DNA of 31,055 nucleotides from Candidatus Stahliibacteriota bacterium (GCA_004377355.1 SOIB01000007.1:1-31055); one strand, 5' to 3'; counted from the first letter of the stretch, positions 11,794-30,168 are shown. Notes: generated by a model from the sequence alone, not told the origin. Translations and numbers: made by a program.

Positions 11794-13100
11794 AAATATC
11801 GGGTAAATTCAATGGAAGATGGTTTATTCTCTACTTCCCAAAACTCTCTTTTTTTCTTATCGACCCACATATCAATAAGCCATTTGGGAAATATACCATC
11901 TCTAATCAGAAATTCCTTATCCCTTTCTAATGCATTAATTGATTCTAATAAGTTATGTGGTAATTTCCCATCTTTTTTCTCCTTATATTCCTTCTTATCT
12001 TTCATCTGTTTTAAACCATCCAATCCCGCAAGAAGAATTGCAGAAATAGCGAAATATGGATTGCATGTAGCGTCAGGCAGACGGTATTCAAGATCAATAT
12101 CTTCTTCTTCAAAATAATCAGGAATTCTGATTGCGGATTCTCTGCTACCCACAATATAAGAAAGTTTTTGTGGAGCTTCAAAACCAGAATTAAGTCTTTT
12201 ATAAGAGTTTGTTGTGGAATTAGTAAAAGCAGATATTGCTTTACTGTGTCTTAAAATACCTTCAGAAAACAATCTCAAGGTTAAAGAGATGTTTTCTCTG
12301 TCTTTAGCATCGTAGAAGATTGATTTATTATTCCATTTTAAAAGTATATGGAAATGCATTCCACTGCCTGGTTCATCATAAATAGGCTTTGGCATAAATG
12401 TAGCCACCATATTGTAAGAACTTGCGAGTCTTTTAACAAAATATTTACTTAAGAATATATTCTCCGCTGCTCTTAGGGGATCAGATCTCGCTATTTCAAT
12501 CTCCTGTTGTCCAAATCTTCCAACTTCGTGATGCCCATATTTCACCTCTATACCTGCTTCCTTAAATACTCTCATTAAACTTATTCTAAAATCTTTCTGT
12601 GTATCAAAAGGATAATCCGCATGGTAACCATTATATCCAGAAAAACCATCACGAATTCGAATATCAACAGTTGAGTACAGAGAAGTGCTTTCGAAATAAC
12701 ATTCATCAAAAATATAGAATTCCAATTCAGGTAATATCTCAATCTCATCAGCTATTCCTTTTTCTTTTATAAGAGAAACTGTTTTCTTTAACATTCTTCG
12801 TGGATCTCCATCAAATTCTTCACCTGTCTTTGAAGAAAATAATTCTCCAAAAAGAATCATAGTTGGAGTTTCTGAAAATGTGTCAATATAATAACGAACA
12901 AGGTCGACTTTAACAACCATGTCGCTTTTTTCCCGATTTTTAAGACCAAGTGATGAACCATCCACACCTATACCCCTCTTAATAAAATAATCTATCTTCT
13001 CAGCAGGAAAGCTTATACTGCGGGATCTCCCATCTAAAGGAGTATAACGAATATCAATGAATTCTATCTTTCTATCTGAAATTACCTTTCTTATATCCAT
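11784..13100 (-). CDS. glnA: Glutamine synthetase family protein (type I-like)
   Basis: GS beta-grasp N-terminus with the DGSS motif. Catalytic KP...GSGMHFHILL and ESAIRIP motifs. The track start is TTG at 13106. The ATG at 13100 is preferred here because a TTGACT-16-TAATAT promoter places the TSS at that ATG. Confidence 0.75.
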   Translation of the reverse strand: MDIRKVISDRKIEFIDIRYTPLDGRSRSISFPAEKIDYFIKRGIGVDGSSLGLKNREKSDMVVKVDLVRYYIDTFSETPTMILFGELFSSKTGEEFDGDPRRMLKKTVSLIKEKGIADEIEILPELEFYIFDECYFESTSLYSTVDIRIRDGFSGYNGYHADYPFDTQKDFRISLMRVFKEAGIEVKYGHHEVGRFGQQEIEIARSDPLRAAENIFLSKYFVKRLASSYNMVATFMPKPIYDEPGSGMHFHILLKWNNKSIFYDAKDRENISLTLRLFSEGILRHSKAISAFTNSTTNSYKRLNSGFEAPQKLSYIVGSRESAIRIPDYFEEEDIDLEYRLPDATCNPYFAISAILLAGLDGLKQMKDKKEYKEKKDGKLPHNLLESINALERDKEFLIRDGIFPKWLIDMWVDKKKREFWEVENKPSSIEFTRYFCL

Positions 13101-13105
13101 ATTCA

Positions 13106-13133
13106 ATATTAATATTCCTTACCCTAAAGTCAA
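13106..13133 (-). promoter_or_regulatory. Promoter for glnA-like gene: TTGACT (reverse complement of 13128-13133), 16 nt, TAATAT (reverse complement of 13106-13111), 5 nt, then ATG. Leaderless arrangement.
   Basis: Read directly on the minus strand: TTGACTttagggtaaggaatatTAATATtgaatATG. Confidence 0.5.
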
Positions 13134-14281: not shown

Positions 14282-15472
14282 ATGGCTCTTGAATATATGT
14301 GGAAGGATGTATTCCAAGGAGTAAGGTTAGGATTTTCTCCCAAGAAAATCTGGGTGGCAGCTAAAGGGCTTCTTATGGGAACAATAGGTTATTCTATCCT
14401 TGCTTACCTTTCATTGATGGCTTCTGGCTGGAATATCCAAAAAATATGGCTGGAATTCAGGTATATCCCGTTTCCATTCTTCCAGGGAAACCTTACATGG
14501 TTTGGATGGATTATATGGGCTATTGCTGGTCTCTGGGTACTATACTTCTACTTCATAACTATGACAGCAATCTCTAAGATAACATATGAGCAATTAAGAG
14601 GAGACGAATTTTACGAGTCTAAAGAAGCCTGGACTTTTGCTCATAAAAACTGGAAGGGAACCTTCCTTTCTCCCATATATCTTATCTTCTTTATTGCCGC
14701 CCTAATATTAACAGGATTGATATTAGGCCTTGTCGGAAGGATACCAACTGTAGGACAAATCCTTATCGGATTATCTGCAGTTCCGATATTCGCCGGGGCA
14801 TTATTTGTTGTATATTTAACAATTGTTGTTGGTGTTATACTAATCAGTGCTCCAGCTATTGTAGCAACTACAGAGAGTGATACCTTTGATACACTCTTTG
14901 AGGGATTCTCACTGATAAACGATCAAACCTGGAGATATATTCTCTGGGAAGTTATCCTTTTGATCACGACTTTTATTGGGATAATTATATTCGCCTGGCT
15001 ATTTAAGTATGCACTATCTTTAACACACAATACACTAATAGTGTGGGCTGGCCCAAGAAACTGGTGGAATATAATGTGGCATAATGCAAACTGGTATTTA
15101 CATATCCCTTGGCTTCCAATCTGGATTGCAAAATGGTATCCAACATTCTTCGTACCCACAGAGTTTATATCTGCCGGCTCAGAAACCCTTGCTCAATATC
15201 CTGGGGCTGCTACAACCTTTGGTGGATTCCTTTTGGGACTTTCCTTCTATATGGTAATATTCATAATCATCGGATACGGAATATCAACTCATGCTGCTGG
15301 TCAAACTTTAATTTACACAATTCTCGTCAAGATAAAAGATGAAAAGGACTTACTGGTGAAAGAAGAGAAATTATTTGAAGCTGAAATCGAGGAGAAAGAA
15401 GAAGAGGTAGAGGTAGGAAAAAAAGAGAAGAAACAAAGAAGAAAAGAAGAAAACAAAGAAGTAAAGCAATAG
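14282..15472 (+). CDS. Hypothetical polytopic membrane protein (about 8-10 TM helices, W/Y-rich loops) with a highly charged K/E-rich low-complexity C-terminal tail
   Basis: Multiple long hydrophobic segments. Tail is KDEKDLLVKEEKLFEAEIEEKEEEVEVGKKEKKQRRKEENKEVKQ. Strong SD (AGGAGG) 4 nt upstream. Confidence 0.5.
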   Translation: MALEYMWKDVFQGVRLGFSPKKIWVAAKGLLMGTIGYSILAYLSLMASGWNIQKIWLEFRYIPFPFFQGNLTWFGWIIWAIAGLWVLYFYFITMTAISKITYEQLRGDEFYESKEAWTFAHKNWKGTFLSPIYLIFFIAALILTGLILGLVGRIPTVGQILIGLSAVPIFAGALFVVYLTIVVGVILISAPAIVATTESDTFDTLFEGFSLINDQTWRYILWEVILLITTFIGIIIFAWLFKYALSLTHNTLIVWAGPRNWWNIMWHNANWYLHIPWLPIWIAKWYPTFFVPTEFISAGSETLAQYPGAATTFGGFLLGLSFYMVIFIIIGYGISTHAAGQTLIYTILVKIKDEKDLLVKEEKLFEAEIEEKEEEVEVGKKEKKQRRKEENKEVKQ

Positions 15473-15502
15473 ATAAAAATAAAAGATCTCTAACTGAAAA
15501 TA

Positions 15503-15534
15503 AAAACGCCCTTTCTTGTGAAAGGGCGTTTTTA
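15503..15534 (+). terminator. Rho-independent terminator: AAAAACGCCCTTTC-TTGT-GAAAGGGCGTTTTT
   Basis: Perfect 10-bp GC-containing stem, 4-nt loop, T-tract. It is flanked by an A-tract, so it may work bidirectionally. Confidence 0.85.
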
Positions 15535-15608
15535 TAAAATGAAACGGCGTCAATAAAACCTTGACTATTAAACAATCTTTTATAGATTAGTAAAAAAGGG
15601 AGGTTTTA

Positions 15609-17645
15609 ATTAAAAGTATTATATTCTTTTTCATAATATTATTTCTTTTAATATTTAATTGTGATAGAGGAGAAAAATTCACGTATGAAGGAAATATAGG
15701 GGGAACTTTAATTGTTTCCCTTATGAATGAACCCACCACACTTAACCCTCTTTATCCATCATTTTCTGGTCTTTCCCCTGTTTCAGAAAAAATATTTAAT
15801 CCATTACATGATCAGAAACCAGATGGTAAAGTAAGAACTTGTTTAGCTCAATCATGGGTATATTCAGAGGATCTAAAATCTATTACATATACAATACGAA
15901 AAGATGCAAGTTGGCATGATGGCACACCAGTAACCGCAAAAGACATTGTATTCACTTTTAAACAGATTAAGGACCCCAAGAATAACTCACCAGTCTCTCA
16001 AAGATTGCGATATATTAAAAACGTAAAAGCAATTGGAGAAAGAGAAGTTAGGTTTGTATTTGATAAAGTATATGCAGATGAATTAATCCATTCAAACATA
16101 CTAATCATCCCAAAACATATTGTAGAGAAGGATAAAAATAATCTCCAAATGAGTAACTTCAGTTTCAGCCCAACCGGGAATGGTCCTTACAAGCTTAATG
16201 AATGGAGACAGGGAGAATGGATCGAGTTAGTTGCAAACAATGATTATTTCAGAGGACGACCTCTACTTGATAGAATAGTTTTCTATTTCCCACACTCTTT
16301 GGAAGAACTATTGGATGAAATCAATTTAGGAAATATAGACATAGCATTTGATCTACCTCCAGAGAAATATGACACTATAAAAGGATACAGTACCATAGTA
16401 TCTTCAGGTAGAGCTTATACGTATATTGGCTGGAATCTCAAGCGATTTCAAGATAGAAATTTAAGAAAAGCCTTCAGCATGGCTATTGATCGTGAAGGTA
16501 TTATATCTTCTATACTTAAAGGTTATGGACGTTTATTAAATTGTCCAATAACACATGAGCATTGGGCATTTAACCCTGACATAAAGGGGATCAAACACAA
16601 CGAACAAAAAGCAAAAGAGTTATTAGAAGAACTAGGATATTCAAAGAAAAGCTGGCAACAATACTATCCGGATCTCCGAGTAGAAATTCTGGTAGAAAGT
16701 GGAAATCCCATTCGCAAGGAAGTAGCTTTTTATATTATGTCTGATTTGCGTTCAATAGGGGTTAATACGCTCGTTACGGAACTTAGAGGGTCACAATTGA
16801 TTGATCGTTTATTCAATCGCAATTTTGATGCATATATTCTTGGATGGAGTGTGGACAAAGCCTTTAACCCTCTTCTAATCTGGAGTCCTAACGGTATATA
16901 TAATTTTGTTGGTTATAAAAATAAGAAAGCTCACGATTTAATGAGAAAAGCGCTGTTTTCTCTTGATAGAAAAAAGGCCAAAAAAGCGTGGCATGAATTC
17001 CAGGAAATTATTGCAAAAGATCTTCCTTACACCTTCCTCTATACACCACAGAAGATAACTCTGGTCAAGGAGAATGTAGCAGGAATGAAGCATGAGGATA
17101 AAAGACCAATTTTATCATACCTTGACGAACTGTACTTTAAGAAAGTCCCATCAACTACATTAAATCTTGCATCCCTTGGAACACACTATAAAGAAACACA
17201 AATAGGAAGTGAACAAAGAAAAGCAGAGATAACTACACCACAACAAACACTAACACCTACTGAAGAAATACTGGAAGCAGTAACCTCCACTACTACAATT
17301 GAAGAAGAGAGATCAACAGAAACACCAACTGAAGAAGTAACTACACCTATAGTGGAAAAGAAGGGACCAATTATTCCCCCAATAATAATCTATTATCCTC
17401 CTAAAAGAGATTATCCTGAAAATGCAAGAAAACTTGATGTTCGAGGACAGGTCTTTATAAAAGTTTACATCTCAAAAGAAGGTATAGTTGATAAAGCAGA
17501 TATTGTAAAAGGACTTTTCCCTTCTTGCGATTCAGCAGCTTTATCGGATGCGTATAAATGTAGATTTGATCCTGCAACTCAGGATGGAGAACCTGTAGCG
17601 GATTCACAGACCCTTCCTTTCCGTTTCCCGCCCGGAGGGTGGTAG
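15609..17645 (+). CDS. Family-5 (OppA/DppA-like) ABC substrate-binding lipoprotein fused through a T/E/P-rich linker to a C-terminal TonB_C domain. The true N-terminus likely lies upstream of the track ATG at 15723, starting at a non-canonical ATT at 15609.
   Basis: SBP_bac_5 core throughout. The in-frame upstream sequence encodes a lipoprotein-type signal peptide plus the hallmark GGTLIVSLMNEPTTLNPL motif, and has no ATG/GTG/TTG. An ATT lies 6 nt after a perfect GGGAGG SD (15597-15602). The C-terminus is PIIPPIIIYYPP plus YPENARKLDVRGQVFIKVYISKEGIVDKADIVKG...PFRFP, a TonB_C pattern. Confidence 0.6.
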   Translation: MKSIIFFFIILFLLIFNCDRGEKFTYEGNIGGTLIVSLMNEPTTLNPLYPSFSGLSPVSEKIFNPLHDQKPDGKVRTCLAQSWVYSEDLKSITYTIRKDASWHDGTPVTAKDIVFTFKQIKDPKNNSPVSQRLRYIKNVKAIGEREVRFVFDKVYADELIHSNILIIPKHIVEKDKNNLQMSNFSFSPTGNGPYKLNEWRQGEWIELVANNDYFRGRPLLDRIVFYFPHSLEELLDEINLGNIDIAFDLPPEKYDTIKGYSTIVSSGRAYTYIGWNLKRFQDRNLRKAFSMAIDREGIISSILKGYGRLLNCPITHEHWAFNPDIKGIKHNEQKAKELLEELGYSKKSWQQYYPDLRVEILVESGNPIRKEVAFYIMSDLRSIGVNTLVTELRGSQLIDRLFNRNFDAYILGWSVDKAFNPLLIWSPNGIYNFVGYKNKKAHDLMRKALFSLDRKKAKKAWHEFQEIIAKDLPYTFLYTPQKITLVKENVAGMKHEDKRPILSYLDELYFKKVPSTTLNLASLGTHYKETQIGSEQRKAEITTPQQTLTPTEEILEAVTSTTTIEEERSTETPTEEVTTPIVEKKGPIIPPIIIYYPPKRDYPENARKLDVRGQVFIKVYISKEGIVDKADIVKGLFPSCDSAALSDAYKCRFDPATQDGEPVADSQTLPFRFPPGGW

Positions 17646-17651
17646 TCTTTA

Positions 17652-18215
17652 ATGAATGTAAAATTTATAGAAAAACGAACTATGATGGGTGAGGAAGAAA
17701 TGCACTGGGCATTAAGACGTATATCCCATCAGGTGATAGAAGACAACCCACGACTTAAAAAAATTTGTATAATTGGAATTCGAAAAAGAGGAGATATATT
17801 AGCCAAACGAATTGCAGAAATACTTAGTGAGCTGACTTCCTGGGATGTAAATATTGGTGTCCTCGATATAACCCTTTACAGAGACGACCTCACAACCTAT
17901 GGACCTAAACCATTAATTGGTCCTACATATTTCCCATGTCCAATAGATGAATTGCCTGTTTTACTTGTAGACGATGTAATACATACAGGTAGAACAATCA
18001 GAGCTGCCCTCGATGAAATTATGGATTATGGTCGTCCTTCTGCAGTAAAACTTGCAGTGATGGTAAACAGGAGCGGAAGAGAACTGCCTATAATGCCCGA
18101 TTATTTTGGAACTTCTATAGATCTCACAGAAGGCGAAGAAGTTCGAGTTAACATTTTGGAAACGGACGGGCAAGACTCTGTAAAAATAGTAGAGGTAAAA
18201 ATTGATAATGAATAG
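17652..18215 (+). CDS. pyrR: PyrR, bifunctional pyrimidine operon regulator / uracil phosphoribosyltransferase
   Basis: Type-I PRTase PRPP motif VLLVDDVIHTGRT. Size and overall pattern match PyrR. Starts 6 nt after the upstream gene. Confidence 0.8.
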   Translation: MNVKFIEKRTMMGEEEMHWALRRISHQVIEDNPRLKKICIIGIRKRGDILAKRIAEILSELTSWDVNIGVLDITLYRDDLTTYGPKPLIGPTYFPCPIDELPVLLVDDVIHTGRTIRAALDEIMDYGRPSAVKLAVMVNRSGRELPIMPDYFGTSIDLTEGEEVRVNILETDGQDSVKIVEVKIDNE

Positions 18216-19143
18216 GAAAGACCTTTTAGGAATTGAAGATTTAAGCAAAGAAGAAATTGAGGAGATTTTAAAGGTAGCAAAGTCTATGGAAGAGATTCTA
18301 GAGCGACCTATCAAAATTGCACCTACGCTACGAGGAATAACTGTAGCAAATCTATTCTTCGAGCCAAGTACCCGAACCTTGAATTCTTTTACTCTAGCAG
18401 AAAAAAGGCTTTCTGCAGACTCTATTAACCTCGTATCATCTTCCTCAAGTGTTCTCAAGGGAGAAACATTACTTGACACTGCTAAGAATATTCAAGCGAT
18501 GGAAGTGGATATAATTGTCATACGGCATTCCATACCAGGAGCTCCTCATTTTTTAGCAGAGAGATTAGATGCTTCTGTTATAAATGCAGGAGATGGAGCA
18601 CATGAACATCCAACACAAGCCTTATCAGACCTTATGACAATACGAAAAAAGTTTTCTAAAATTAAAGATCTAAAAGTAGCTATTGTGGGCGACATTGAAC
18701 ACTCTCGAGTTGCACGTTCACTTATTATAGGCTTGAATAAGATGGGCGCAAAGGTTTTTGTATGCGGTCCACCTACTTTAATACCAAAATGGATGGATAT
18801 ATTTGACGTTACAATTAAATATAACTTAGAGGAAATTTTACCAGACAAGGACATTTTATATATTCTAAGAGTACAAAAGGAAAGGCAGGAGGAAAGTCTC
18901 CTTCCTTCAATGAGAGAATACATAAAATACTATAGTCTCACCTACGAAAGATTAAGGAAGTTTGCTTCTTCAAAAGTCATTATAATGCATCCAGGACCAA
19001 TTAACAGAGGGATCGAGATTGAATCGCGTGTAGCAGATTCTGAATATTCACTCATTTTAGACCAGGTAATATCGGGCGTGGCAGTTAGGATGAGTATTCT
19101 CTACCTTTTAAGCAGGAAAAAAATCGATGAAAATAGCAATTAA
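18202..19143 (+). CDS. pyrB: Aspartate carbamoyltransferase catalytic subunit
   Basis: STRTR-like (EPSTRTLNSF), HPTQAL and HPGP (MHPGPINRG) motifs. Overlaps pyrR by 14 nt. Confidence 0.85.
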   Translation: MIMNRKDLLGIEDLSKEEIEEILKVAKSMEEILERPIKIAPTLRGITVANLFFEPSTRTLNSFTLAEKRLSADSINLVSSSSSVLKGETLLDTAKNIQAMEVDIIVIRHSIPGAPHFLAERLDASVINAGDGAHEHPTQALSDLMTIRKKFSKIKDLKVAIVGDIEHSRVARSLIIGLNKMGAKVFVCGPPTLIPKWMDIFDVTIKYNLEEILPDKDILYILRVQKERQEESLLPSMREYIKYYSLTYERLRKFASSKVIIMHPGPINRGIEIESRVADSEYSLILDQVISGVAVRMSILYLLSRKKIDENSN

Positions 19144-20419
19144 AGGTGCTCACCTTCTTGATCCAAAGAATAACGTAGACGAAATTGGTAATATTTATAT
19201 TGAAAATGGTATAGTTATAGGTAAATCATCACGTAAGACGCAAGATGTGAAAATAGATGCCAGTGGTCTATATCTAATACCTGGATTAGTAGATATTCAC
19301 TCACATTTTCGTGAGCCAGGCAAAGAAGACGCTGAAACAATAGAAAGTGGATCTCGTGCCGCTCTTAAAGGAGGGTATACAACGGTTTGTGTAATGCCAA
19401 ATACAGAGCCACCGATTGATAATGAAGGAGTAGCAAGATTCATAAAGGAAAAAGCAATAGAGAATAAAAAATGTCGAATTTTTCCAGTTGGAACTATAAC
19501 TAAAGGAAGAGAAGGTAGGGAACTATCAGAGATGGGACATCTCTATGAAGCTGGTTGTGTGGCTTTCAGCGATGATGGTAACTGTGTAATGAACCCTGCA
19601 GTGCTACGAAGAGCTCTGGAATATTCCCTTTTCTTAGAAGTCCCTATTATAGAGCATCCTGAAGATATGTTATTATCCAAAAATGGTCAAATAAATGAAG
19701 GTATAATATCAACAAAACTCGGATTAAAAGGTATACCTGATATATCTGAAGCATCTATAGTAGCAAGAGATATACTTCTTTCCAAATTTACAGAGGGGAG
19801 ACTTCATCTTGCTCATATTTCATCAGAGGAGTCTGTAAGTATAATAAAATATGGAAAGAGTAAGAGTATTAGGGTTACGGCAGAAGTTACACCACATCAT
19901 CTTCTCTTAACTGAAGAAGAAGTTTTAAGTTTTGACACCAATAAAAAGATGAAACCACCACTTAGAACTAAATCAGATAGAGATGCCCTGCAGAAAGCGT
20001 TGAAAGAAGGAATTATTGATTCAGTAGCTACAGACCATGCTCCACATCCTGATTATGAAAAAGAACTCGAGTACTCTCTTGCTCCTTTTGGCGTAATTGG
20101 TTTGGAAACTGCATTTAGTGCATTATACACCAAACTTATCCTTCCCGGCACCTTAAGTTTTAAGCAATTAATTCTATGTATGACAGATAAACCTGCACAG
20201 ATACTCGCTCTTCCGGTTGGCGAGATAAAAAAAGGAGGAACTGCAGATTTTACCCTTCTTGACCTTGGGAGCGAATGGGAGGTTGACCCAGATAATTTTG
20301 AATCAAAATCAAAAAATTCTCCTTTCATTGGATGGAAACTAAAAGGAGTCATAAAAGCAACTATAGTTAATGGCTTTCTACCTTATAGAGAAGGTGAATT
20401 CCTGAGGGAGGAAAAGTGA
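19127..20419 (+). CDS. pyrC: Dihydroorotase (class I, about 430 aa)
   Basis: Metal-binding DIHSHFREPG and DHAPH motifs. Overlaps pyrB by 17 nt. Confidence 0.8.
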   Translation: MKIAIKGAHLLDPKNNVDEIGNIYIENGIVIGKSSRKTQDVKIDASGLYLIPGLVDIHSHFREPGKEDAETIESGSRAALKGGYTTVCVMPNTEPPIDNEGVARFIKEKAIENKKCRIFPVGTITKGREGRELSEMGHLYEAGCVAFSDDGNCVMNPAVLRRALEYSLFLEVPIIEHPEDMLLSKNGQINEGIISTKLGLKGIPDISEASIVARDILLSKFTEGRLHLAHISSEESVSIIKYGKSKSIRVTAEVTPHHLLLTEEEVLSFDTNKKMKPPLRTKSDRDALQKALKEGIIDSVATDHAPHPDYEKELEYSLAPFGVIGLETAFSALYTKLILPGTLSFKQLILCMTDKPAQILALPVGEIKKGGTADFTLLDLGSEWEVDPDNFESKSKNSPFIGWKLKGVIKATIVNGFLPYREGEFLREEK

Positions 20420-22920
20420 CTGCTTCGTTTGATATCTTCGATTTAGAAACAGCTGCAGTCATGGGAAGTAAATTTCTCTTCTCCTTAAAGGAAGGAGCCG
20501 GTGAGAGTGAACTCTACGAAACATCAAAACAGACACTATCTCGTTATTTTGAACTCAGAGGCTTAGATACAAAGAAATTGGACTTCTTCTTAGAACACAA
20601 ATGTAAGTTTATTATGGAACTAAATAAAGAAGAAAGAGCTTACCTCCGTGATATGTTTACTCGTCTTGAAGAAAATAAAATAAATAAAGAAGACATCAAA
20701 TTTTTTAATAGCCTAACTGAAAATATCTTAGAAAAGGGTTCTCACTATTTTCCTCTACTATTATCTTTAATAATGAAAATTTTTCCATCTGAATTGGTAA
20801 GTGGGGTAAAGAAATCCTTCGAAGTAGGGAAAAGATTAAGCGGATTGCTAAATGATATTTTAAAAAGTAAAGAATTGGATAATTTCACCATTTTGTTTTT
20901 AAAAGAACCTCTTCCAATTGGAATTCCACTCACAAACACCTCATTAGATGACTTCAAAAAATTTCTTACTCCTTATGGTTTTACTCCCGACCTATTAAAA
21001 CAAATTCATAATATTTTAAGAGCTAATTTTACCCAAAGAGAGAGTGGAGATATAATTTCTCTTCTTAAGAACACAGATATATCGGGTTTGGATGATTTAC
21101 GTAACTTTAACTTTTATAGCTTTTTCATACCAGAAGATGATACCTTAGTAAGAATTGCAAAAATAGTATCTGATAAAGCATCCAAAGTGAAGCAAAGATT
21201 AATGCAGAAAGATATGGAACTTGATATGAAAGATGTAAAAGTCCGAGAAGAAACCCACCAACTCCTTCGGAAAAATGTAGAAAAATTACAATCACTAATA
21301 GATGTGAAAAAGGGTAATCTTCAAGAGATTTTGAGTAATACTCAGGAACAATTTACTGCGCTTGAAAAAGCGATAAAACTACATATAAGACATATCCAGG
21401 CGCATGAACATGCTTCTAAATCGCTAAAAAAAGCCATCGATGAGAATAAGATACTACTCAGCATAAATCTAGAAGATATAAAGAATTTCTTTCCCACTCC
21501 TCCCCTCTGGGAAATAGAAAGACTAATAAAGGAATTCTGGCATGAATTACCATACCTCGAAATTATTGATCCTGCATGTGAAAGAAAAATAATTAAGCTT
21601 CTAAAAAAAGAAGAACGGTTATCCTCTGATAAAAAATTATTTTTACAGCTCGCACATACGGAGAGAAGAGGATTCTCTCCTGATATCGAAAGAGTAATCT
21701 TAAATTATAGAAAGGTCTTAGAAGAAATCTTTGAACCTTTATACATCCGTGAAGTAATAAATCGTATGATTGAAATCTGGCCTCCTAACGTTGATTTTGG
21801 AAATCCTAAATCAATAATTGTTACAACTAGAAAACTCCATCTTGCAGGTCTGGATTTACTACCAAAAGGACACTTTTACAGATTCGGAATTAAAGGTAAT
21901 ATAGAGCCCACTATTGATAGAAAGCTGTTAGAAAAAAGAGAACAAATATCAACCTTTCTAAGAAAAGGATTCTCAACCCTTGTTTCAGTTTTAATATATG
22001 ATATTCGTGGCTCGAGTTTTATGGCACATCGCCTTCGGAATGCTAAGAAGGAAAGGTCTATTCGTAATAAATTCCAATCTACTATGCTTGACACAGCCAC
22101 AAGGGGTTCGTCGTTTATACTCAAAGATACAGGTGATGGAGGAATCTTGTGGTTTGGTGGCAATTCTAACAAACTCTACAGGAATATCTATAAGTGTCGG
22201 GAGAGTGAATCAGGGGCAATCTTACGTTCTTCAACTGCTTTTGAAGATGAATTCATACTAACGCCACACCCAAAGAGCGCAGAGATGGCTATTAATGCAG
22301 CATTAAATTTAGTGCAAACGGCCGAGGATTTCGTCACAGAAAATTATATGAACTACAGAGATTGGTTTGAAGAAATAACAGAGAAAGAAGTCTTTCACGA
22401 TGGCATTACCTACGCGTTACTACCTCCTAAATTCAAATCGTTATTCAGGCTTGGTATAGGGATAGCAAGTGGACAACCTGGAAAAGACATTATATTCTCC
22501 CCTAATGCATTTGGGGATCCCGATCTTACGGGAAATATTGTGGACGAATCCGCTCTATTTTCATCCGGGAGGAGTCCTGAACGTTCTGTAATTCTAATAG
22601 ACCATTGTACACTAATAAATCTACTACTCAACTCAGATCAATATCTATTGATTCTTCCCCTAACTAAGGAAGACTCTGACGAGGTAGTTATTGATAAACT
22701 CCTTACCATTCTTAAAAGAGAAGAATCTGAACAGGAATTCATATTCGATGATTTTACTGTATCACCTGTGGGTCTCTATTATATTGACTATAAAGATAAG
22801 GAAAAGAGTATAGAGTTCAAACTTTGGAAGAATTTAAAATTGGAATTCAATGATAAAGGGGACTTATCTAGCAAAAGGGGTCGTGTAAAAATACTCTATG
22901 AAGTCTTAGTTAAGGAATAG
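20416..22920 (+). CDS. Large hypothetical protein (834 aa). It has a ~500-aa alpha-helical N-terminal region of unknown function plus a divergent class-III nucleotidyl-cyclase (CHD/palm) domain around aa 520-715.
   Basis: The C-terminal region matches cyclase hallmarks. LVSVLIYDIRGSSFMA matches vtvlFaDIvGFTal with the metal Asp. ILKDTGDGGILWFG matches iKtiGDaymavfG with the second Asp. AEMAINAALNL and FRLGIGIASGQPG...GNIVDESALFSSG match rvGIhtG...GdtVNlAsRl, but the canonical Arg is missing. GTG start overlaps the pyrC stop (GTGA). Confidence 0.45.
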   Translation: MTASFDIFDLETAAVMGSKFLFSLKEGAGESELYETSKQTLSRYFELRGLDTKKLDFFLEHKCKFIMELNKEERAYLRDMFTRLEENKINKEDIKFFNSLTENILEKGSHYFPLLLSLIMKIFPSELVSGVKKSFEVGKRLSGLLNDILKSKELDNFTILFLKEPLPIGIPLTNTSLDDFKKFLTPYGFTPDLLKQIHNILRANFTQRESGDIISLLKNTDISGLDDLRNFNFYSFFIPEDDTLVRIAKIVSDKASKVKQRLMQKDMELDMKDVKVREETHQLLRKNVEKLQSLIDVKKGNLQEILSNTQEQFTALEKAIKLHIRHIQAHEHASKSLKKAIDENKILLSINLEDIKNFFPTPPLWEIERLIKEFWHELPYLEIIDPACERKIIKLLKKEERLSSDKKLFLQLAHTERRGFSPDIERVILNYRKVLEEIFEPLYIREVINRMIEIWPPNVDFGNPKSIIVTTRKLHLAGLDLLPKGHFYRFGIKGNIEPTIDRKLLEKREQISTFLRKGFSTLVSVLIYDIRGSSFMAHRLRNAKKERSIRNKFQSTMLDTATRGSSFILKDTGDGGILWFGGNSNKLYRNIYKCRESESGAILRSSTAFEDEFILTPHPKSAEMAINAALNLVQTAEDFVTENYMNYRDWFEEITEKEVFHDGITYALLPPKFKSLFRLGIGIASGQPGKDIIFSPNAFGDPDLTGNIVDESALFSSGRSPERSVILIDHCTLINLLLNSDQYLLILPLTKEDSDEVVIDKLLTILKREESEQEFIFDDFTVSPVGLYYIDYKDKEKSIEFKLWKNLKLEFNDKGDLSSKRGRVKILYEVLVKE

Positions 22921-22921
22921 A

Positions 22922-24469
22922 ATGAAAAATAGAATAAAAGAATTCGAAGAAATAATAAAAGCAATTAACTCAGAAAAAATTAATATCGATGAAGTTCTTC
23001 GCCTAATAATGGATAATATATCAAAATTAATTAGCGCTAAAGCGTGGTCACTTCTCCTGTTAGATAAAAAAAATAGAGCACTTGTTTTTAAGGTAGTTAT
23101 TGGCGAAAAAAATGAGGAATTAACTGGAAAAAGGATGCCAATGGACAAAGGAGTGGTGGGATGGGTAGTGAAAAATAAAAAGTCAGTAATTGTATCTGAA
23201 CCTTATCAAGATAAGCGATTTTTCAAAGATATTGACAAAAATACAGGTTTTATAACAGAGAATATTCTAGCAATTCCTTTAATCAATAAAGGCAGGATAC
23301 TTGGAGTCATTGAAGCAATTAACAAAGTTGATGGAACTAATTTCGACCAAAAAGATTTGAAATCAGTTTGCAATTTTGCTGAACATGCAGCTATTGCTCT
23401 TGAAAATGCAAGTCTTGTCCAGAGCTTACAAAATAAAGTGAGATATTTAACACTTATTTCAAATATCAATAAAAATATAACCTCTATTCTTGACCTTGAA
23501 ACTCTACTAAAGAAGAGCACAAAATTAATCCAGAAGACATTTGATTACTATTATGTTGGAATAGGACTTTTTGAAAATGATAAAATTATTTTAAAGGGAT
23601 TCTCTGCTGCTAAAAATATTAAGCCTGTCCGGACCTTAATAAATAAAGGCGAGGGACTTGTCGGAAAAGTTATGAATGATATGAAAAGGATTATAATTCT
23701 GGATTCCGAAAAAGAACTGGATTTTTGTGAAGGTATTAAAGGTGTCAAGAGCGAGATGGTAATTCCAATCAAAAGAGAAACTAATTTTTTGGGTATTATT
23801 GATATTGGCTCACCAGAGAAATATGCTTTTTCAGTAGAAGAAGCAGATATCGTAAGTGAAGTATCACACCAATTAGCTATTGCTGTAGAGAATGCGAAAC
23901 TTTACCAGAAAATAAGACTTGCAGCAATTACTGATGATCTAACAGGTTTATATAATTCAAGATTTTGCAATAAAAAACTACCTGGAATTGTTAATAAATG
24001 GCGAAAGGAAGGTAAAGTTGGCTCCCTAGTATTTATGGATATTGATCATTTTAAAAATATAAACGATTCTTACAACCATTTAATAGGAAGTAAATTATTA
24101 CATTTGGTGGCAAGAAGAATAAAGGAAGTATTGGATGAAGGTAAAATAGGAATAAGATATGGAGGCGATGAATATATAATCCTAATGGAAGATATGGAAT
24201 TAGAAAAGGCAATTGATTTTACCAAAGAAATTAAAAATCTAATTTCGTCGCGACCATATACAATTGGTGATAATTCTGGTGAAATAAAATGCAACGTAAA
24301 AGCCAGCTTTGGAATAGCAAGTTTCCCAGATGTAACAACAGACCCTCAGGAATTACTCCGTCTCGCAGACCTTGCAATGTATTATGTAAAAGCCAACGGT
24401 AGGGATAATATAGCTTATATGGACAAAAACGCTGATATTCAACTTCTTAATGAGCAAACAAATCCTTAA
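22922..24469 (+). CDS. GAF-GAF-GGDEF diguanylate cyclase (active-site variant GGDEY)
   Basis: Two GAF-like modules (..GVVGWVVKNKKSVIV..; ..GEGLVGKVMNDMKRIIIL..). GGDEF domain with DDLTGLYNSRF, DIDHFKNIND and RYGGDEYIILM. Starts 1 nt after the upstream stop. Confidence 0.8.
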   Translation: MKNRIKEFEEIIKAINSEKINIDEVLRLIMDNISKLISAKAWSLLLLDKKNRALVFKVVIGEKNEELTGKRMPMDKGVVGWVVKNKKSVIVSEPYQDKRFFKDIDKNTGFITENILAIPLINKGRILGVIEAINKVDGTNFDQKDLKSVCNFAEHAAIALENASLVQSLQNKVRYLTLISNINKNITSILDLETLLKKSTKLIQKTFDYYYVGIGLFENDKIILKGFSAAKNIKPVRTLINKGEGLVGKVMNDMKRIIILDSEKELDFCEGIKGVKSEMVIPIKRETNFLGIIDIGSPEKYAFSVEEADIVSEVSHQLAIAVENAKLYQKIRLAAITDDLTGLYNSRFCNKKLPGIVNKWRKEGKVGSLVFMDIDHFKNINDSYNHLIGSKLLHLVARRIKEVLDEGKIGIRYGGDEYIILMEDMELEKAIDFTKEIKNLISSRPYTIGDNSGEIKCNVKASFGIASFPDVTTDPQELLRLADLAMYYVKANGRDNIAYMDKNADIQLLNEQTNP

Positions 24470-26018
24470 AATACATCCTGGCATAAAATACCCTGTAACA
24501 CTTTCAAAAATAGACAATCAGTATGCTTCACTGGGAGAAAAAGTCCCTCCTGGAGGAAAGATTGAAATTCTTGATATAAGGAACACAGAAGGAAGAAGGA
24601 CCTATGAAAGAACCCTTGTATTTCTCCTGGATTATATAGCTAAAAGAAAAGGTGTTACTATCAAGATTGAGCATTCTTTTGGAGATGCTTTATATGGCAG
24701 GTTTTTAAAGGGTTCATTAAACTTAAAATCAGCAAAAAAAGAAATTAAGGATTTGATTAAAGCGGATAAAATGATAGAAAGATTAATGTTGCCTAAATTA
24801 GAGGCTTTGCGTTTCTTAAAGGGAAGAGAAGATGACTTTAACATATTAAAATATCTTTCCCGAACATATATCCCTGTGTATAAATTAAACAATTTCGCAG
24901 CGTATTTTGCTGGTCCTTTATTACCAAAAACTGGATTATTAAAAATATTTAACCTGATTAAGATAAAAGATGGATTCTTATTCATCTTGCCAACACAAAA
25001 AGACCCTGATACTTTAGGAAAAATTGAAAAAAGAGAACAATTACTTAAAACATATCGAGAAGCAGAAAAAGAAGTAGAGATATTAAAAGTGTGGGATGTT
25101 GCACATTTGAATGAATATGTTGTCTCTGGAAGGATATCAGAAATAGTGAAGTTAGCAGAGGCAATTCATACAGAAAAATTTACCAATATTTGTGAAGATA
25201 TATTAAGTAAAAAAGATGGAATAAAAATGATACTTATTGCAGGACCTTCTTCTTCCGGAAAAACAACATTTTCAAAAAGACTGGGTATTCACCTTAAATT
25301 GCATGGATTCTTTCCTCTTTATATATCACTTGATGATTACTTCCTGGAAAGAGACAAAACCCCATTATATAAAGATGGTTCTCCATTCTTTGACACTATA
25401 GAGGCAATTGATGTGAACCTATTCAGAAAACATATCTCACAGATTTTAAAAGGCGAAGAAGTAAAAGCATTAACATTCAATTTCAAAAAGGGAAGAAAGG
25501 AATGGAATGGCAAGACATTCAAACTTGAGTCCAACACAATTCTGATAGTTGAAGGAATACATGCCTTTAACCCAGAACTTCTAAAAGATTTAGAAATTAA
25601 TACTTTTCGAATCTATGTCAGTGCCCTTACACAATTAAATATAAACAGGGTAAACCGTATCCCCACTCGTGATGTTCGCTTACTCAGGAGGATATTCAGA
25701 GATACCCGTTTCAGAGGATATCCTGCCAATGAGACATTAAGACGATGGGAATCTGTTAAAGAGGGAGAAGAAAGATTTATCTTTCCACACCAAGAAAGAG
25801 CAGACATAATGTTTAACTCTTCTTTAGTATATGAACTCGCAGTTCTAAAAGGATTCCTCGAAACACCACTTCGTTGCGTTGATATAACTTCTCCTTATTA
25901 CTGTGAAGCTCTCCGTTTACTAAATTTCTTGGACCATTTTCTTGACATAAGAGAGGAAGAAATTCCACAAACTTCAATACTACGGGAATTCATTGGTGGT
26001 AGTACATTTTACTATTAA
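24450..26018 (+). CDS. Uridine kinase/phosphoribulokinase-family P-loop nucleoside kinase with a ~240-aa N-terminal extension
   Basis: Walker A LIAGPSSSGKTTFSKRLG followed by the Udk-like LYISLDDYF. Overlaps the GGDEF gene by 20 nt. Confidence 0.65.
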   Translation: MSKQILKIHPGIKYPVTLSKIDNQYASLGEKVPPGGKIEILDIRNTEGRRTYERTLVFLLDYIAKRKGVTIKIEHSFGDALYGRFLKGSLNLKSAKKEIKDLIKADKMIERLMLPKLEALRFLKGREDDFNILKYLSRTYIPVYKLNNFAAYFAGPLLPKTGLLKIFNLIKIKDGFLFILPTQKDPDTLGKIEKREQLLKTYREAEKEVEILKVWDVAHLNEYVVSGRISEIVKLAEAIHTEKFTNICEDILSKKDGIKMILIAGPSSSGKTTFSKRLGIHLKLHGFFPLYISLDDYFLERDKTPLYKDGSPFFDTIEAIDVNLFRKHISQILKGEEVKALTFNFKKGRKEWNGKTFKLESNTILIVEGIHAFNPELLKDLEINTFRIYVSALTQLNINRVNRIPTRDVRLLRRIFRDTRFRGYPANETLRRWESVKEGEERFIFPHQERADIMFNSSLVYELAVLKGFLETPLRCVDITSPYYCEALRLLNFLDHFLDIREEEIPQTSILREFIGGSTFYY

Positions 26019-27319: not shown

Positions 27320-28975
27320 ATGATAAAATTAAACACTCTGAGAGGAAGAATATCCATTCTGTTATTAATTAGTTTAACTGGAATAACTATTCTGATTGGT
27401 AGCATATCTTTTTTTTCAACACGTTCCAACTTCAGAACTATTTTAGAGGAAAGAGCAGCCACTATTATAGAAGCTGTAGGACCTACATTAGAACTCGGTC
27501 TATATGCGGAAAATCTTGCATTATTGGAGCCTCCCATAAAAGGTCTTCTTGCACAAAGAGATATTATATATAGTTCTGCTTATAATCTTTCAGGATTTAA
27601 TCTAATAAGAAGGAGTGAAATTGATTTTGATTTTGAATTAGATAAGAAACTTTTAGAAAAAGTTAAACAGGGTGAATTTATTAGTCAATTAAGGAAAATC
27701 CAGGGACAATCATTTCTTGATTGCATAGGTCCAGTTTATCCTCTGGAAATTACAGGGCAAAAGGAACCAATCGGAATACTGCGACTTGGAATTTCGCTTG
27801 CAGTGATATCATCTGCAATGCAAAGACTGACTTTAATTCTTAGTATCTCTCTTATTGCTGCTCTTTTAATAGTAAGTTTAGTAACAACAAGAATGCTTAT
27901 AATGCTTTTCAGACCTCTCTATGATTTAAAAGAAAACCTAAAACAAATATCGGAAGGGAAAGTAAATTTGGGAGTACGATTATCAGAAGATACATTAACT
28001 ACTGAAACCAATGAACTGGCGTCCTCCTTTAACAGATTTGTCCAATCCATGCAAGAAAACAGGGATTTTACCAAGGAAGTTTCAGAACGGATGTCAGCAC
28101 AAGCAGAGGAGTTAGCTGCTTCATCTGAGCAAATGAGTGCCTCATATGAAGAAATTTCATCCACCATGCAACAGGTAGCCCTAGCCTCTGACAAGCAAGC
28201 TGCAGAGTCACAGACTGCCTCTGAAATGGCACAAAAAGCACTCCGTGTTGTGCGACAATCTTTGGATAGCGCCCAGGAAACGCTAAAATCTTCAGATACT
28301 ATTTCTCTGCTATCCCAGAAGGGTGAAGAATCAGCAAAAGAAGTTCGGTTAGCAATGGACAATGTAACCAACATCACACATGAATTAGAAGGTGTTATCC
28401 AACAAATTCAAAAACGTTCTGAAGAGATATCAAATATTATTGAAACAGTAAGTGAAATAAGTAAAAGGACAAACGTGCTTTCTCTTAACGCAACAATAGA
28501 AGCCTCAAAAGCAGGAGAATCTGGTAGGGGTTTTGCTGTTGTTGCAGAAGAGGTTCGTAAGCTAGCAACCCAATCTGCTGAATCTGCCAGAAAGATTTCT
28601 GAAATACTGGGTGAGATAACAAGTGTTATTGATTCATTGATTATAAAAACCCAAGAAACTATTAAAGAAGTAAATCATGGTAAGGAAACCTCCTTAAAAT
28701 CAGCGGATTTCTTAAAAAATATTGCAGATGAGATAAGCCACATAACAAAGAGAATAAAAGAAATAACGATAATAAACAAACAGGGAGAAGAGGAAGTAAA
28801 TACTATCAATGAAGCTATTGAAAATATAGCAGCTATAGCAGAAGAGAATGCTGCATCATCAGAAGAGGTCTCTGCCGCAATACAGCAATTATCAGCATCT
28901 ATTCAAGAGTTATCTGCAACCTCTCAGGAAACCGCGCAAATAGCTGAAAACCTTCTTAAATTAACAAGAGAATAA
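27320..28975 (+). CDS. Methyl-accepting chemotaxis protein (TM-sensor-TM-HAMP-MCP signalling domain)
   Basis: Two TM segments flanking a ~150-aa periplasmic region. Highly conserved MCP signature RTNVLSLNATIEASKAGESGRGFAVVAEEVRKLA. SD AAGGAGG upstream. Confidence 0.85.
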   Translation: MIKLNTLRGRISILLLISLTGITILIGSISFFSTRSNFRTILEERAATIIEAVGPTLELGLYAENLALLEPPIKGLLAQRDIIYSSAYNLSGFNLIRRSEIDFDFELDKKLLEKVKQGEFISQLRKIQGQSFLDCIGPVYPLEITGQKEPIGILRLGISLAVISSAMQRLTLILSISLIAALLIVSLVTTRMLIMLFRPLYDLKENLKQISEGKVNLGVRLSEDTLTTETNELASSFNRFVQSMQENRDFTKEVSERMSAQAEELAASSEQMSASYEEISSTMQQVALASDKQAAESQTASEMAQKALRVVRQSLDSAQETLKSSDTISLLSQKGEESAKEVRLAMDNVTNITHELEGVIQQIQKRSEEISNIIETVSEISKRTNVLSLNATIEASKAGESGRGFAVVAEEVRKLATQSAESARKISEILGEITSVIDSLIIKTQETIKEVNHGKETSLKSADFLKNIADEISHITKRIKEITIINKQGEEEVNTINEAIENIAAIAEENAASSEEVSAAIQQLSASIQELSATSQETAQIAENLLKLTRE

Positions 28976-30168
28976 TGAATAATCTAATCGGATTCATATA
29001 TATTCTTATTTCAAGCCTATTTATTTATTTCGTTATTATACGCTTACTAAAACATTTGAAGACGGGAAGATTTAGAATATTAAGATATTCATTATTCCCA
29101 CTATTACTCATTCTGTTCAGCTTACTTTTCAGTAAATTTGGGTTGTTTGAACAAATCTACCGAGGATTACTTATCTTTTTCTCATCGTATTCGCTGATTT
29201 TCCTATTCTTACTTTCAATAATGATAAACATCCGTGGAGAGAAAAGTAACTGGCGTAATATCCTCGCTATTGGAATTCCAATACTCATCATCGCTCTTCT
29301 GCATATACTTGGAGTAATTACACCTGTCTTAAATTTTATCAAGAGACCATTAATAACTATTGCAGATACTCATATAAGTTTATTGGATGTATTTTTTGCT
29401 TTTATAATATTTTATTTATCAATTAGATACTCCCAGAGTATAAAGGAGTTGCTGGAAAAAAGATTGCAGAGATTCCCTGCTATGGACCTGGGAAGGATAA
29501 ATATTACTTCAATGATAGTTCGATATTTAATAATCATTATCGGAATATTCATAGCATTGTCCATTGTTGGCATCGACCTCACTACCTTAAAGGTATTAAT
29601 TGGTGCACTCGGAGTTGGTATAGGATTTGGATTACAACACATGGTAAATAACCTCTTGAGTGGATTTATTATTCTCACGGATAAATCCATTGTTGTAAAT
29701 GATTTGATAGAAGTTGATGGATTGCTCGGATTGGTTGAGGCTATAGGACTCAGGGCTACTATAATAAGAACCTTCAACAATATAGAAGTAATAGTTCCAA
29801 ATTCAGAACTTGTTTATAATAAGGTAACCAATTATACGCATTCTGATAATTTAATAAGAATAGACATTCCAATTGGCATCTCTTATTCATCAGACCCAAA
29901 CAGAGTGAAAGAAGTGCTAATTAAGGCACTTTCTCACCTGGAAAACAGAGTGGAAGAACCCCCCATTGATGTTTTCTTTACTAATTTTGGAGAGAGTTCC
30001 CTTGACTTTACAGTACTTATCTGGACGGATCAACCTCTTAAGAAAAAGAGAATTGAAAGTGAAGCACGATTCGCAATATGGAAAGCATTGAAAGAAAACG
30101 ACATTGAAATACCATTTCCTCAACATGATATACACATTAAAAATAAGGAATCAGAAGTTAACTCTTAA
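28975..30168 (+). CDS. MscS-family mechanosensitive channel with extra N-terminal TM helices
   Basis: MscS pore-helix/beta-domain signature LIGALGVGIGFGLQHMVNNLLSGFIILTDKSIVVNDLIEVDGLLGLVEAIGLRATIIRTFNN. Start overlaps the MCP stop (TAATG). Confidence 0.8.
   Translation: MNNLIGFIYILISSLFIYFVIIRLLKHLKTGRFRILRYSLFPLLLILFSLLFSKFGLFEQIYRGLLIFFSSYSLIFLFLLSIMINIRGEKSNWRNILAIGIPILIIALLHILGVITPVLNFIKRPLITIADTHISLLDVFFAFIIFYLSIRYSQSIKELLEKRLQRFPAMDLGRINITSMIVRYLIIIIGIFIALSIVGIDLTTLKVLIGALGVGIGFGLQHMVNNLLSGFIILTDKSIVVNDLIEVDGLLGLVEAIGLRATIIRTFNNIEVIVPNSELVYNKVTNYTHSDNLIRIDIPIGISYSSDPNRVKEVLIKALSHLENRVEEPPIDVFFTNFGESSLDFTVLIWTDQPLKKKRIESEARFAIWKALKENDIEIPFPQHDIHIKNKESEVNS

Follow-up and report, generated by a model that had tools for sequence, protein, structure and literature searches.

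In Leptospira interrogans the diguanylate cyclase Lcd1 is activated by cyclic AMP (cAMP), which is bound by its GAF domain (review PMC8846402); Protein Data Bank (PDB) entry 5W10 is the GAF domain of this enzyme (PMC11800159). In Myxococcus xanthus GacB, a GAF-Hypr-GGDEF enzyme, is also cAMP-activated (bioRxiv 10.1101/600031). Cross-talk from cAMP via a GAF domain to a GGDEF enzyme is thus already known, as are Hypr GGDEFs. Here we describe a gene pair that may be hard-wired for cross-talk of this kind. It is located in a DNA of 31,055 nucleotides (nt) from Candidatus Stahliibacteriota bacterium (GCA_004377355.1 SOIB01000007.1:1-31055; this whole stretch is called the window in the following) and consists of a gene for a cyclase-like protein of 834 amino acids (aa) and the adjoining gene for a GAF-GAF-GGDEF protein with a GGDEY motif. 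The pair stands in a string of seven genes (positions 15609-26018; Table 1), which a preliminary description made from the sequence alone had interpreted as a possible pyrimidine-linked signalling circuit.

The Hypr GGDEF enzymes make 3',3'-cyclic GMP-AMP (3',3'-cGAMP). Their signature is Ser348 of GacA from Geobacter (Thr is also admitted), a position which corresponds to Asp344 of PleD; the Ser works only together with GGDEF and not with GGEEF (the "Goldilocks" requirement). A cross-dimer Arg is found in 94% of the diguanylate cyclases, and Tyr, Ser, Ala or Gln in its place shifts the product to cGAMP; [G/A/S]G[D/E]E[F/Y] is counted as an active motif (PMC6456294). New with respect to these systems are a cyclase-homology family that is invisible to profile searches, the pairing of its two paralog groups A and B, and the strictness with which it is coupled, in operons, to a separate GGDEY, Hypr-like clade in uncultivated phyla of the FCB group. 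A literature search that combined WOR-3, adenylate cyclase and GGDEF gave no results, and a search for a link between pyrR or pyrimidine and diguanylate cyclases yielded no title or abstract bearing on this arrangement.

Homologs of the 834-aa protein were collected with a word-index search (15 homologs of about 838 aa, 51-98% identical, all metagenomic), with a HMMER profile search run exhaustively over 1.84 billion cluster representatives (49 matches, no ordinary cyclase among them) and with a one-genome-per-species scan, which gave 80 loci, all in metagenome-assembled genomes (MAGs) of WOR-3, Stahlbacteria, Cloacimonadota, TA06 and Edwardsbacteria. In 83 related loci (referred to by L numbers) the seven window proteins were compared by tblastn and by calling of open reading frames (ORFs). 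The gene of the 834-aa type (group A, see below) is directly followed on its 3' side by a GAF-GGDEF gene with a GGDEY or GGDEF motif in 52 of the 53 loci in which the contig permits the downstream neighbour to be tested, down to a cyclase identity of about 28%, and the pair occurs in the MAGs of all five phyla.

In most related genomes neither pyr genes nor a Udk-like kinase gene are found within 10 kb of the pair. In WOR-3 bin77 it is flanked by RuvX/YceG upstream and by CBS and Na/H exchangers downstream, in Cloacimonadota by PmbA upstream and a Ser/Thr kinase downstream, there without pyr genes. An upstream pyrRBC and a downstream kinase are confined to loci whose cyclase shares at least 38% identity with that of the window (L001-L018, L059, L062, L087, L088). 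In this subclade the string pyrR-pyrB-pyrC-(PmbA)-cyclase-GGDEF-kinase is found in about 20 species-level genomes (cyclase identity 38-98%) with changing outer flanks; in its deeper branches (L015, L059, L062, L087, L088) PmbA is inserted between pyrC and the gene of the 834-aa type. The gene for the SBP-TonB_C lipoprotein, the first of the string, precedes pyrR in L002-L005, L013, L015, L059 and L062 (42-74% identity) and is not upstream of pyrR in L001 and L006-L012. Since the pieces separate in the relatives, the string resolves into a pyr operon, a housekeeping kinase gene, a lipoprotein gene and an ancient two-gene module. We are inclined to read it as a composite limited to one lineage, of which only the pair of cyclase-like and GAF-GAF-GGDEY genes would be the ancient coupled core. 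The pyrimidine and signalling genes, which the preliminary description considered to be transcriptionally welded together, thus lie in separate loci in most genomes having the pair, the very arrangement that the description itself had named as arguing for an incidental linkage; in one subclade the linkage is stable. The framing of the seven genes as pyrimidine signalling is largely incidental.

A PmbA/TldD-family gene directly 5' of the group A gene is found in L015 (8632-10005), L059 (8674-10002), L062 (8667-9986) and L087 (2688-4037), and also in Cloacimonadota (L020, 8073-9419); in the window it is absent from this position. PmbA may be a third recurrent neighbour of the signalling module. 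A mobile or defence-island origin of the pair was rejected because of its conserved housekeeping neighbourhoods and the presence of one copy per genome.

No family of Pfam, NCBIfam or PADLOC, PF00211 (Guanylate_cyc) included, matches the 834-aa protein even when E values up to 10 are admitted, and its HMMER family profile run against the PDB sequences retrieved no cyclase, only coiled-coil noise such as vimentin. The N-terminal half of the protein is all-helical, a long coiled coil or helix pair being predicted at about residues 241-348; it is followed by a divergent cyclase-homology domain of class III and, at the C-terminus, by a small subdomain rich in beta structure. AlphaFold modelling of the full-length protein with 16 sequences gave a poor result (predicted local distance difference test score, pLDDT, 52.7), which was not used for the fold search; the C-terminal fragment was modelled successfully with a 44-sequence alignment. 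A membrane-bound cyclase was ruled out, the maximum 19-residue hydropathy being 1.46 and no transmembrane segment being present.

The residue register was obtained by hhalign profile-profile comparison with the C1 and C2 domain sequences of the adenylyl cyclases AC5, AC8 and AC9. YDIRGSS aligns with FADIVGFT, which makes D529 the first metal-binding Asp; LKDTGDGG aligns with VKTIGDAV, which identifies K570 as the specificity Lys and D574 as the second metal-binding Asp; RLGIGIASG aligns with RVRIGIHTG and places R678; and PDLTGNIVDESAL aligns with YDIWGNTVNVASR, which makes D703 the C2 Asp and puts D710 opposite the transition-state Asn and L714 opposite the transition-state Arg. K570 corresponds to the Lys of KTIG and D703 to the Asp of YDIWG, both in C2, and the two make up an adenine-type pair. 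An alignment of 112 family members taken from the loci shows D529, K570, D574 and D703 without exception in the 111 sequences that extend over these four columns. The family has, therefore, both the two metal-binding Asp (D529, D574) and the substrate-specifying pair (K570/D703) of class III cyclases. It differs from the class III adenylyl cyclases (CyaB from P. aeruginosa, 3r5g; CyaC from Spirulina, 1wc1; mammalian AC C1/C2) in escaping detection by PF00211 and by HMMER against the PDB, in two insertions (about residues 584-620 and 644-676), in the replacement of the transition-state Asn and Arg, and in a 500-residue helical N-terminal region and a C-terminal beta subdomain without known relatives.

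The family falls into two clean paralog groups. In group A, which includes the window protein and is encoded by the GGDEF-adjacent gene, position 678 is Arg or Lys and position 710 is variable (Asp, Asn, Ala, Ser, Gly, His), some orthologs keeping the canonical Asn. In group B position 678 is Gln and position 710 is invariably Arg. The group B gene is found directly upstream of A in 28 loci and between rplQ and valS in 21 loci, and 48 of 61 assemblies contain exactly one A and one B; a group B gene was looked for in the window and none is present. The 1:1 pairing together with the complementary differences in site-lining residues suggests that A and B form a C1/C2-like heterodimer, in which one site would be competent and one degenerate.

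The rplQ/valS position of group B is the end of the ribosomal alpha operon (rpsM-rpsK-rpsD-rpoA-rplQ) and is common to WOR-3 and Cloacimonadota (L060, 9149-11368, and also L058, L063-L065, L067, L068, L075, L077 and L083; in Cloacimonadota L041, L042, L049, L050, L055 and L057). In L059 and L062 a B-valS pair lies immediately 5' of the string SBP-TonB_C-pyrRBC-PmbA-A-GGDEY. L066 (8891-10894) encodes a single 667-aa member whose signature is mixed, with Arg at both 678 and 710; what follows it is neither a GGDEF gene nor valS but a KaiC-like ATPase and an LptF/G permease.

The second protein of the pair begins with a GAF domain (GAF-A) whose best matches among the PDB sequences are the Lcd1 GAF (5w10, 2.8e-24) and the CyaB2 GAFs (1ykd, 2.2e-20), followed by the GAFs of PDE5, PDE6, PDE10 and PDE2 (1e-17 to 1e-20). 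By sequence, its nearest relatives are GAF domains that bind cAMP or cyclic GMP. Inspection of the protein by eye showed no more than part of an NKx(n)Fx3D(E)-like string, NKVDGTNFDQKDL.

In the HMMER alignment of the GGDEF domain with PleD (PDB 1w25) the guanine-recognising Asp344 of PleD is Ser in the window protein (NDSYNHLIGS versus NDTFGHDIGD) and the cross-dimer Arg300 is also Ser (GLYNSRF versus GLHNRRY). Of what marks a canonical diguanylate cyclase, namely Asp344, Arg300 and an RxxD I-site, the protein has nothing, the residues being Ser and Ser and RxxD being absent. What it has are all three Hypr features: the Ser, the Asp in GGDEx and a cross-dimer residue other than Arg. Because both Hypr signature substitutions are present, its earlier designation as a c-di-GMP (cyclic di-GMP) synthase is doubtful and probably wrong. 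The substitutions extend to the relatives. Among the 53 linked genes in which the motif was read, 50 have GGDEY and 3 have GGDEF; in the cyclase-linked genes examined the Asn of LTGLxN is followed by S, A, T, V, I or Y but in none of them by R; and the position of Asp344 is Ser in the WOR-3 partners and Gly in those of Cloacimonadota and Edwardsbacteria. Two GGDEF genes of the same loci that are not linked to the cyclase are canonical (NR, GD, GGEEF).

The RxxD I-site has been lost in the pyr-linked clade, the window included. Distant partners from WOR-3 and Stahlbacteria keep it 5 residues before GGDEY, for example as RERDIAVRYGGDEY or RERD...RYGGDEY (I-site-bearing distant partners include L056, 13155-14546, and L047, 11719-13113). 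In many distant partners the residue aligned with the Asn of IND in PleD, which we take to be the second base-contacting position, is Asp (VDDNYGH).

The design resembles that of Lcd1 in that a GAF domain of the type binding cyclic nucleoside monophosphates (cNMPs) lies N-terminal to a GGDEF domain, and in the logic proposed here, in which cAMP would act via a GAF domain on the synthesis of a cyclic dinucleotide. Lcd1, in contrast, has only one GAF and is a canonical synthase of c-di-GMP, whereas the window protein has two GAFs and a GGDEY domain with Hypr substitutions, and a cyclase-like gene lies immediately upstream in all but one of the evaluable loci; we know of no report of Lcd1 being linked in an operon to a dedicated cyclase. 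With GacA and GacB the protein shares the Ser at the position of GacA Ser348, the Asp of GGDEx and the cross-dimer residue other than Arg, and with GacB in addition the GAF-GGDEF architecture. It differs from these two deltaproteobacterial enzymes in its occurrence in WOR-3/FCB candidate phyla, in GGDEY instead of GGDEF, in the tandem GAF, in the lack of an I-site in the window protein and in the Gly that replaces Ser in some relatives. Its product is a predicted one, and what is new is that its gene is coupled to that of a cyclase.

We propose that the two proteins form a relay. The 834-aa protein would make a cyclic purine mononucleotide, most likely cAMP because Lys570 and Asp703 are an adenine-type pair. 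For this it would probably form a heterodimer with the one group B paralog, encoded elsewhere or in tandem, and the helical and coiled-coil N-terminal region of the 834-aa protein would be the input module. The cyclic mononucleotide would then bind to GAF-A of the neighbouring protein and switch on the GGDEY domain, for which a cGAMP-type product is predicted because of the Ser/Ser signatures and the Asp in the GGDEx motif; it would make 3',3'-cGAMP or a mixture of purine cyclic dinucleotides rather than c-di-GMP alone. What the analysis establishes are gene order with its conservation, fold, residue pattern and the likeness of GAF-A to cNMP-binding GAFs, while catalysis, both products, the A/B heterodimer and activation via the GAF are inferred. 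In one WOR-3 subclade the pair would have come to lie between an ordinary pyrRBC operon and the gene of a housekeeping kinase. In this explanation, a composite string around an ancient, hard-wired relay from cAMP via GAF to a cyclic dinucleotide, we place, taken as a whole, slightly better than even confidence.

Several observations speak against it. The hhalign match to the cyclases is weak (probability 8%, pairwise E 0.0011), which is why the register rests on similarity in fold and agreement of motifs. The transition-state Asn and Arg (VNxAxR, helix alpha4) are replaced in the window protein by Asp710 and Leu714, and Arg at 714 is found in no family member; with both residues absent, cyclase activity is not assured. 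For the Gly at the position of Asp344 in the partners from Cloacimonadota and Edwardsbacteria we know of no characterised example. The pyr linkage persists over a subclade in which cyclase identity ranges from 38 to 98% and is not just a short-lived accident, and all sequences are from MAGs.

The missing transition-state residues are also what recommends the main rival explanation, namely that the 834-aa protein is a pseudo-cyclase, which would bind nucleotide without catalysis and, as sensor or scaffold, regulate the neighbouring GGDEF enzyme through contact without a diffusible cNMP being formed. Pseudo-enzymes usually lose their metal- and substrate-binding residues, whereas here the metal-binding Asp pair, Lys570 and Asp703 are kept throughout both paralog groups. 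The invariant Arg710 of group B, one helical turn from position 714, could provide the charge that is lacking if A and B form a heterodimer, and the canonical Asn is retained in some group A orthologs. The resemblance of GAF-A to cNMP-binding GAFs, finally, suggests a small-molecule signal. We therefore regard a pseudo-cyclase as rather unlikely, while taking it seriously.

According to a second rival explanation all seven genes belong to one pyrimidine-linked circuit, in which either the signalling genes would be co-transcribed under the control of PyrR or the messenger would regulate pyrimidine synthesis and salvage. What speaks for it is mainly the arrangement of the genes. The string is kept in the subclade described above while its outer flanks change, and this stability allows co-transcription there; the genes for pyrimidine synthesis and for a salvage kinase bracket the pair; and the junctions overlap without a convincing terminator in between. 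The ORF listing of the window reproduces exactly the seven co-directional genes and the spacings of the preliminary description: from the first junction to the sixth the genes are separated by 6 nt, overlap by 14, by 17 and by 4 nt, are separated by 1 nt and overlap by 20 nt. It had also been right in that the only strong terminator-like site lies before the block: the hairpin at 15500-15535, to be considered bidirectional because of the A-run before and the T-run after it, closes the upstream gene of 396 aa, and the 10 weak sites within the block compare with 8.2 expected from shuffled sequence, which is chance frequency.

Tight packing is, however, normal in this window, so that overlap taken by itself says little about functional coupling. 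Of the 11 same-strand junctions outside the block, 6 are likewise overlaps or gaps of at most 8 nt and join unrelated genes, and in a related genome (L085) 12 mixed housekeeping genes form an equally tight string; in the genome of the window, too, genes overlap by default. On the minus strand the gene of a PBP1-type transglycosylase/transpeptidase (9739-11793) and glnA (11784-13106), which are unrelated, overlap by 10 nt, and on the plus strand (27320-30168) the equally unrelated genes of a methyl-accepting chemotaxis protein and an MscS channel overlap by 1 nt.

Further findings weigh against a pyrimidine circuit. Most genomes that have the pair have it without pyr genes or kinase, and in sister lineages PmbA breaks the junction of pyrC and cyclase. 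The adenine-type Lys/Asp pair of the cyclase is not a pyrimidine signature. The kinase is a widespread housekeeping enzyme: it has at least 7998 homologs at E<=1e-10, several of them named nucleoside kinase, and similarity over its full length, N-terminal extension and PRK/Udk domain included, to a widespread family of about 520-560 aa. Nearly all of the best 120 homologs listed, which are from Clostridia, Thermotogae, Caldisericia and WOR-3, are full-length, and the matches listed reach 41-50% identity over 96-100% of the length (Clostridium, Kosmotoga, Caldisericia, WOR-3). In other WOR-3 genomes the kinase gene is located next to mutL, in the string hpf-hprK-mutL-kinase-rsmB, without pyr or signalling genes. 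In or before the block no PyrR-binding RNA or other riboswitch was detected with Rfam at gathering and at permissive thresholds. A sub-threshold match to RF00515, the PyrR site, at 15499-15620 (22.7 bits versus a gathering threshold of 54, E 4.6) is almost certainly spurious, since it is on the minus strand, opposite to pyrR, and overlaps with the terminator hairpin. A weak hairpin just 5' of pyrR (17628-17642) is presumably also different from a PyrR site. Taken together, a circuit of all seven genes appears improbable.

A variant in which A, B and the GAF-GAF-GGDEY protein form a new relay whose output or substrate choice is tied to pyrimidines in the pyr-linked subclade must be judged very improbable. 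The odd base-recognition residues (Ser or Gly; Asn or Asp at the Asn of IND) or the atypical cyclase site would have to admit UTP or CTP, and the pyr operon and the kinase would supply the substrate for a pyrimidine-containing cyclic mono- or dinucleotide. A Pycsar-like anti-phage system, i.e. a pyrimidine cyclase placed within the operon that supplies its substrate and acting through effectors encoded downstream, as had also been speculated, is hardly credible, since no effector with a cNMP-binding domain plus a transmembrane segment or TIR domain is encoded (the neighbours are pyrC, PmbA or group B, and GAF-GAF-GGDEF), PADLOC gave no meaningful match for the cyclase, GGDEF, kinase or SBP proteins, the Lys/Asp pair is of the adenine type, and the gene is single-copy, vertically inherited and in housekeeping surroundings.

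Table 1. Features of the seven-gene string and of the hairpin before it (window positions)
Feature	Position	Strand	Remarks
Palindromic hairpin, 16-bp stem	15500..15535	.	A-run 5', T-run 3'; terminator-like
SBP_bac_5 + TonB_C lipoprotein	15609..17645	+	Pfam/NCBIfam; Thr/Glu/Pro-rich linker between the domains
pyrR, bifunctional pyr regulator/uracil phosphoribosyltransferase family	17652..18215	+	NF003549, 191 bits (cut-off 138)
pyrB, aspartate carbamoyltransferase catalytic subunit	18202..19143	+	NF002032, 388 bits (cut-off 263)
pyrC, dihydroorotase	19127..20419	+	TIGR00857, 412 bits (cut-off 279)
834-aa soluble protein, group A of an unrecognised family	20416..22920	+	No family match
Cyclase-homology domain of the 834-aa protein, about residues 520-745	21973..22650	+	Asp529, Asp574, Lys570, Arg678, Asp703
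GAF-GAF-GGDEF protein, 515 aa	22922..24469	+	Motif RYGGDEY, no RxxD I-site
GAF-A, residues 21-161, candidate cyclic-nucleotide sensor	22982..23404	+	PDB sequence matches
GGDEF catalytic domain, residues 335-495	23924..24406	+	PF00990, 1.8e-34
Long-form nucleoside (uridine) kinase, 522 aa	24450..26018	+	PRK/Udk domain residues 261-457, P-loop GPSSSGKTT

Of the seven gene labels given earlier, six were confirmed by Pfam and NCBIfam scans, the 834-aa protein being the one that matches no family. The first gene most likely starts with ATT at 15609, as had been assumed: a ribosome-binding site, GGGAGG, lies 5 nt upstream and the frame opens with a lipoprotein signal peptide, IKSIIFFFIILFLLIFNC, with the lipobox LIFNC; the first ATG is at 15723. 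The fusion of SBP_bac_5, a solute-binding domain of the oligopeptide/nickel type, to a C-terminal TonB_C is unusual. The pyr genes resemble the Bacillus-type pyrR-pyrB-pyrC operon with PyrR attenuation in gene order, in overlapping frames and in a PyrR equivalog that scores above the curated cut-off. They differ in the lack of a detectable PyrR-binding RNA element, in the position of pyrR 6 nt after the lipoprotein gene, and in being followed by signalling genes rather than by carA/B and pyrD/F/E. The N-terminal extension of the kinase (about 240 residues, 24450-25170) has no match in Pfam, NCBIfam or the PDB sequences and is covered by the near-full-length alignments to the homologs listed. 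The ORF of 396 aa that ends at the hairpin (14282-15472) matches nothing in Pfam or NCBIfam and has a counterpart in the same position in L003-L005 and L013 (78-86% identity).

For the annotation of compact genomes the locus holds a caution: co-directional overlap, as seen here with pyr genes, kinase, valS and rplQ, does not imply a shared function. If the proposed relay is correct, the 834-aa protein would represent a new, highly divergent class III cyclase-like family, which is invisible to Pfam, NCBIfam and HMMER and limited to WOR-3, Stahlbacteria, Cloacimonadota, TA06 and Edwardsbacteria, and whose A/B pairs recall the C1/C2 asymmetry of the animal adenylyl cyclases. The range of the Hypr-type GGDEFs would widen from the few lineages with characterised examples (Geobacter, Myxococcus, Bdellovibrio) to uncultivated phyla, which would provide a natural series of GGDEY proteins with Ser or Gly for testing the "Goldilocks" and cross-dimer rules. 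The cross-talk from cNMPs to cyclic dinucleotides, hitherto a matter of biochemistry only (Lcd1, GacB), would in these organisms be genetically hard-wired.

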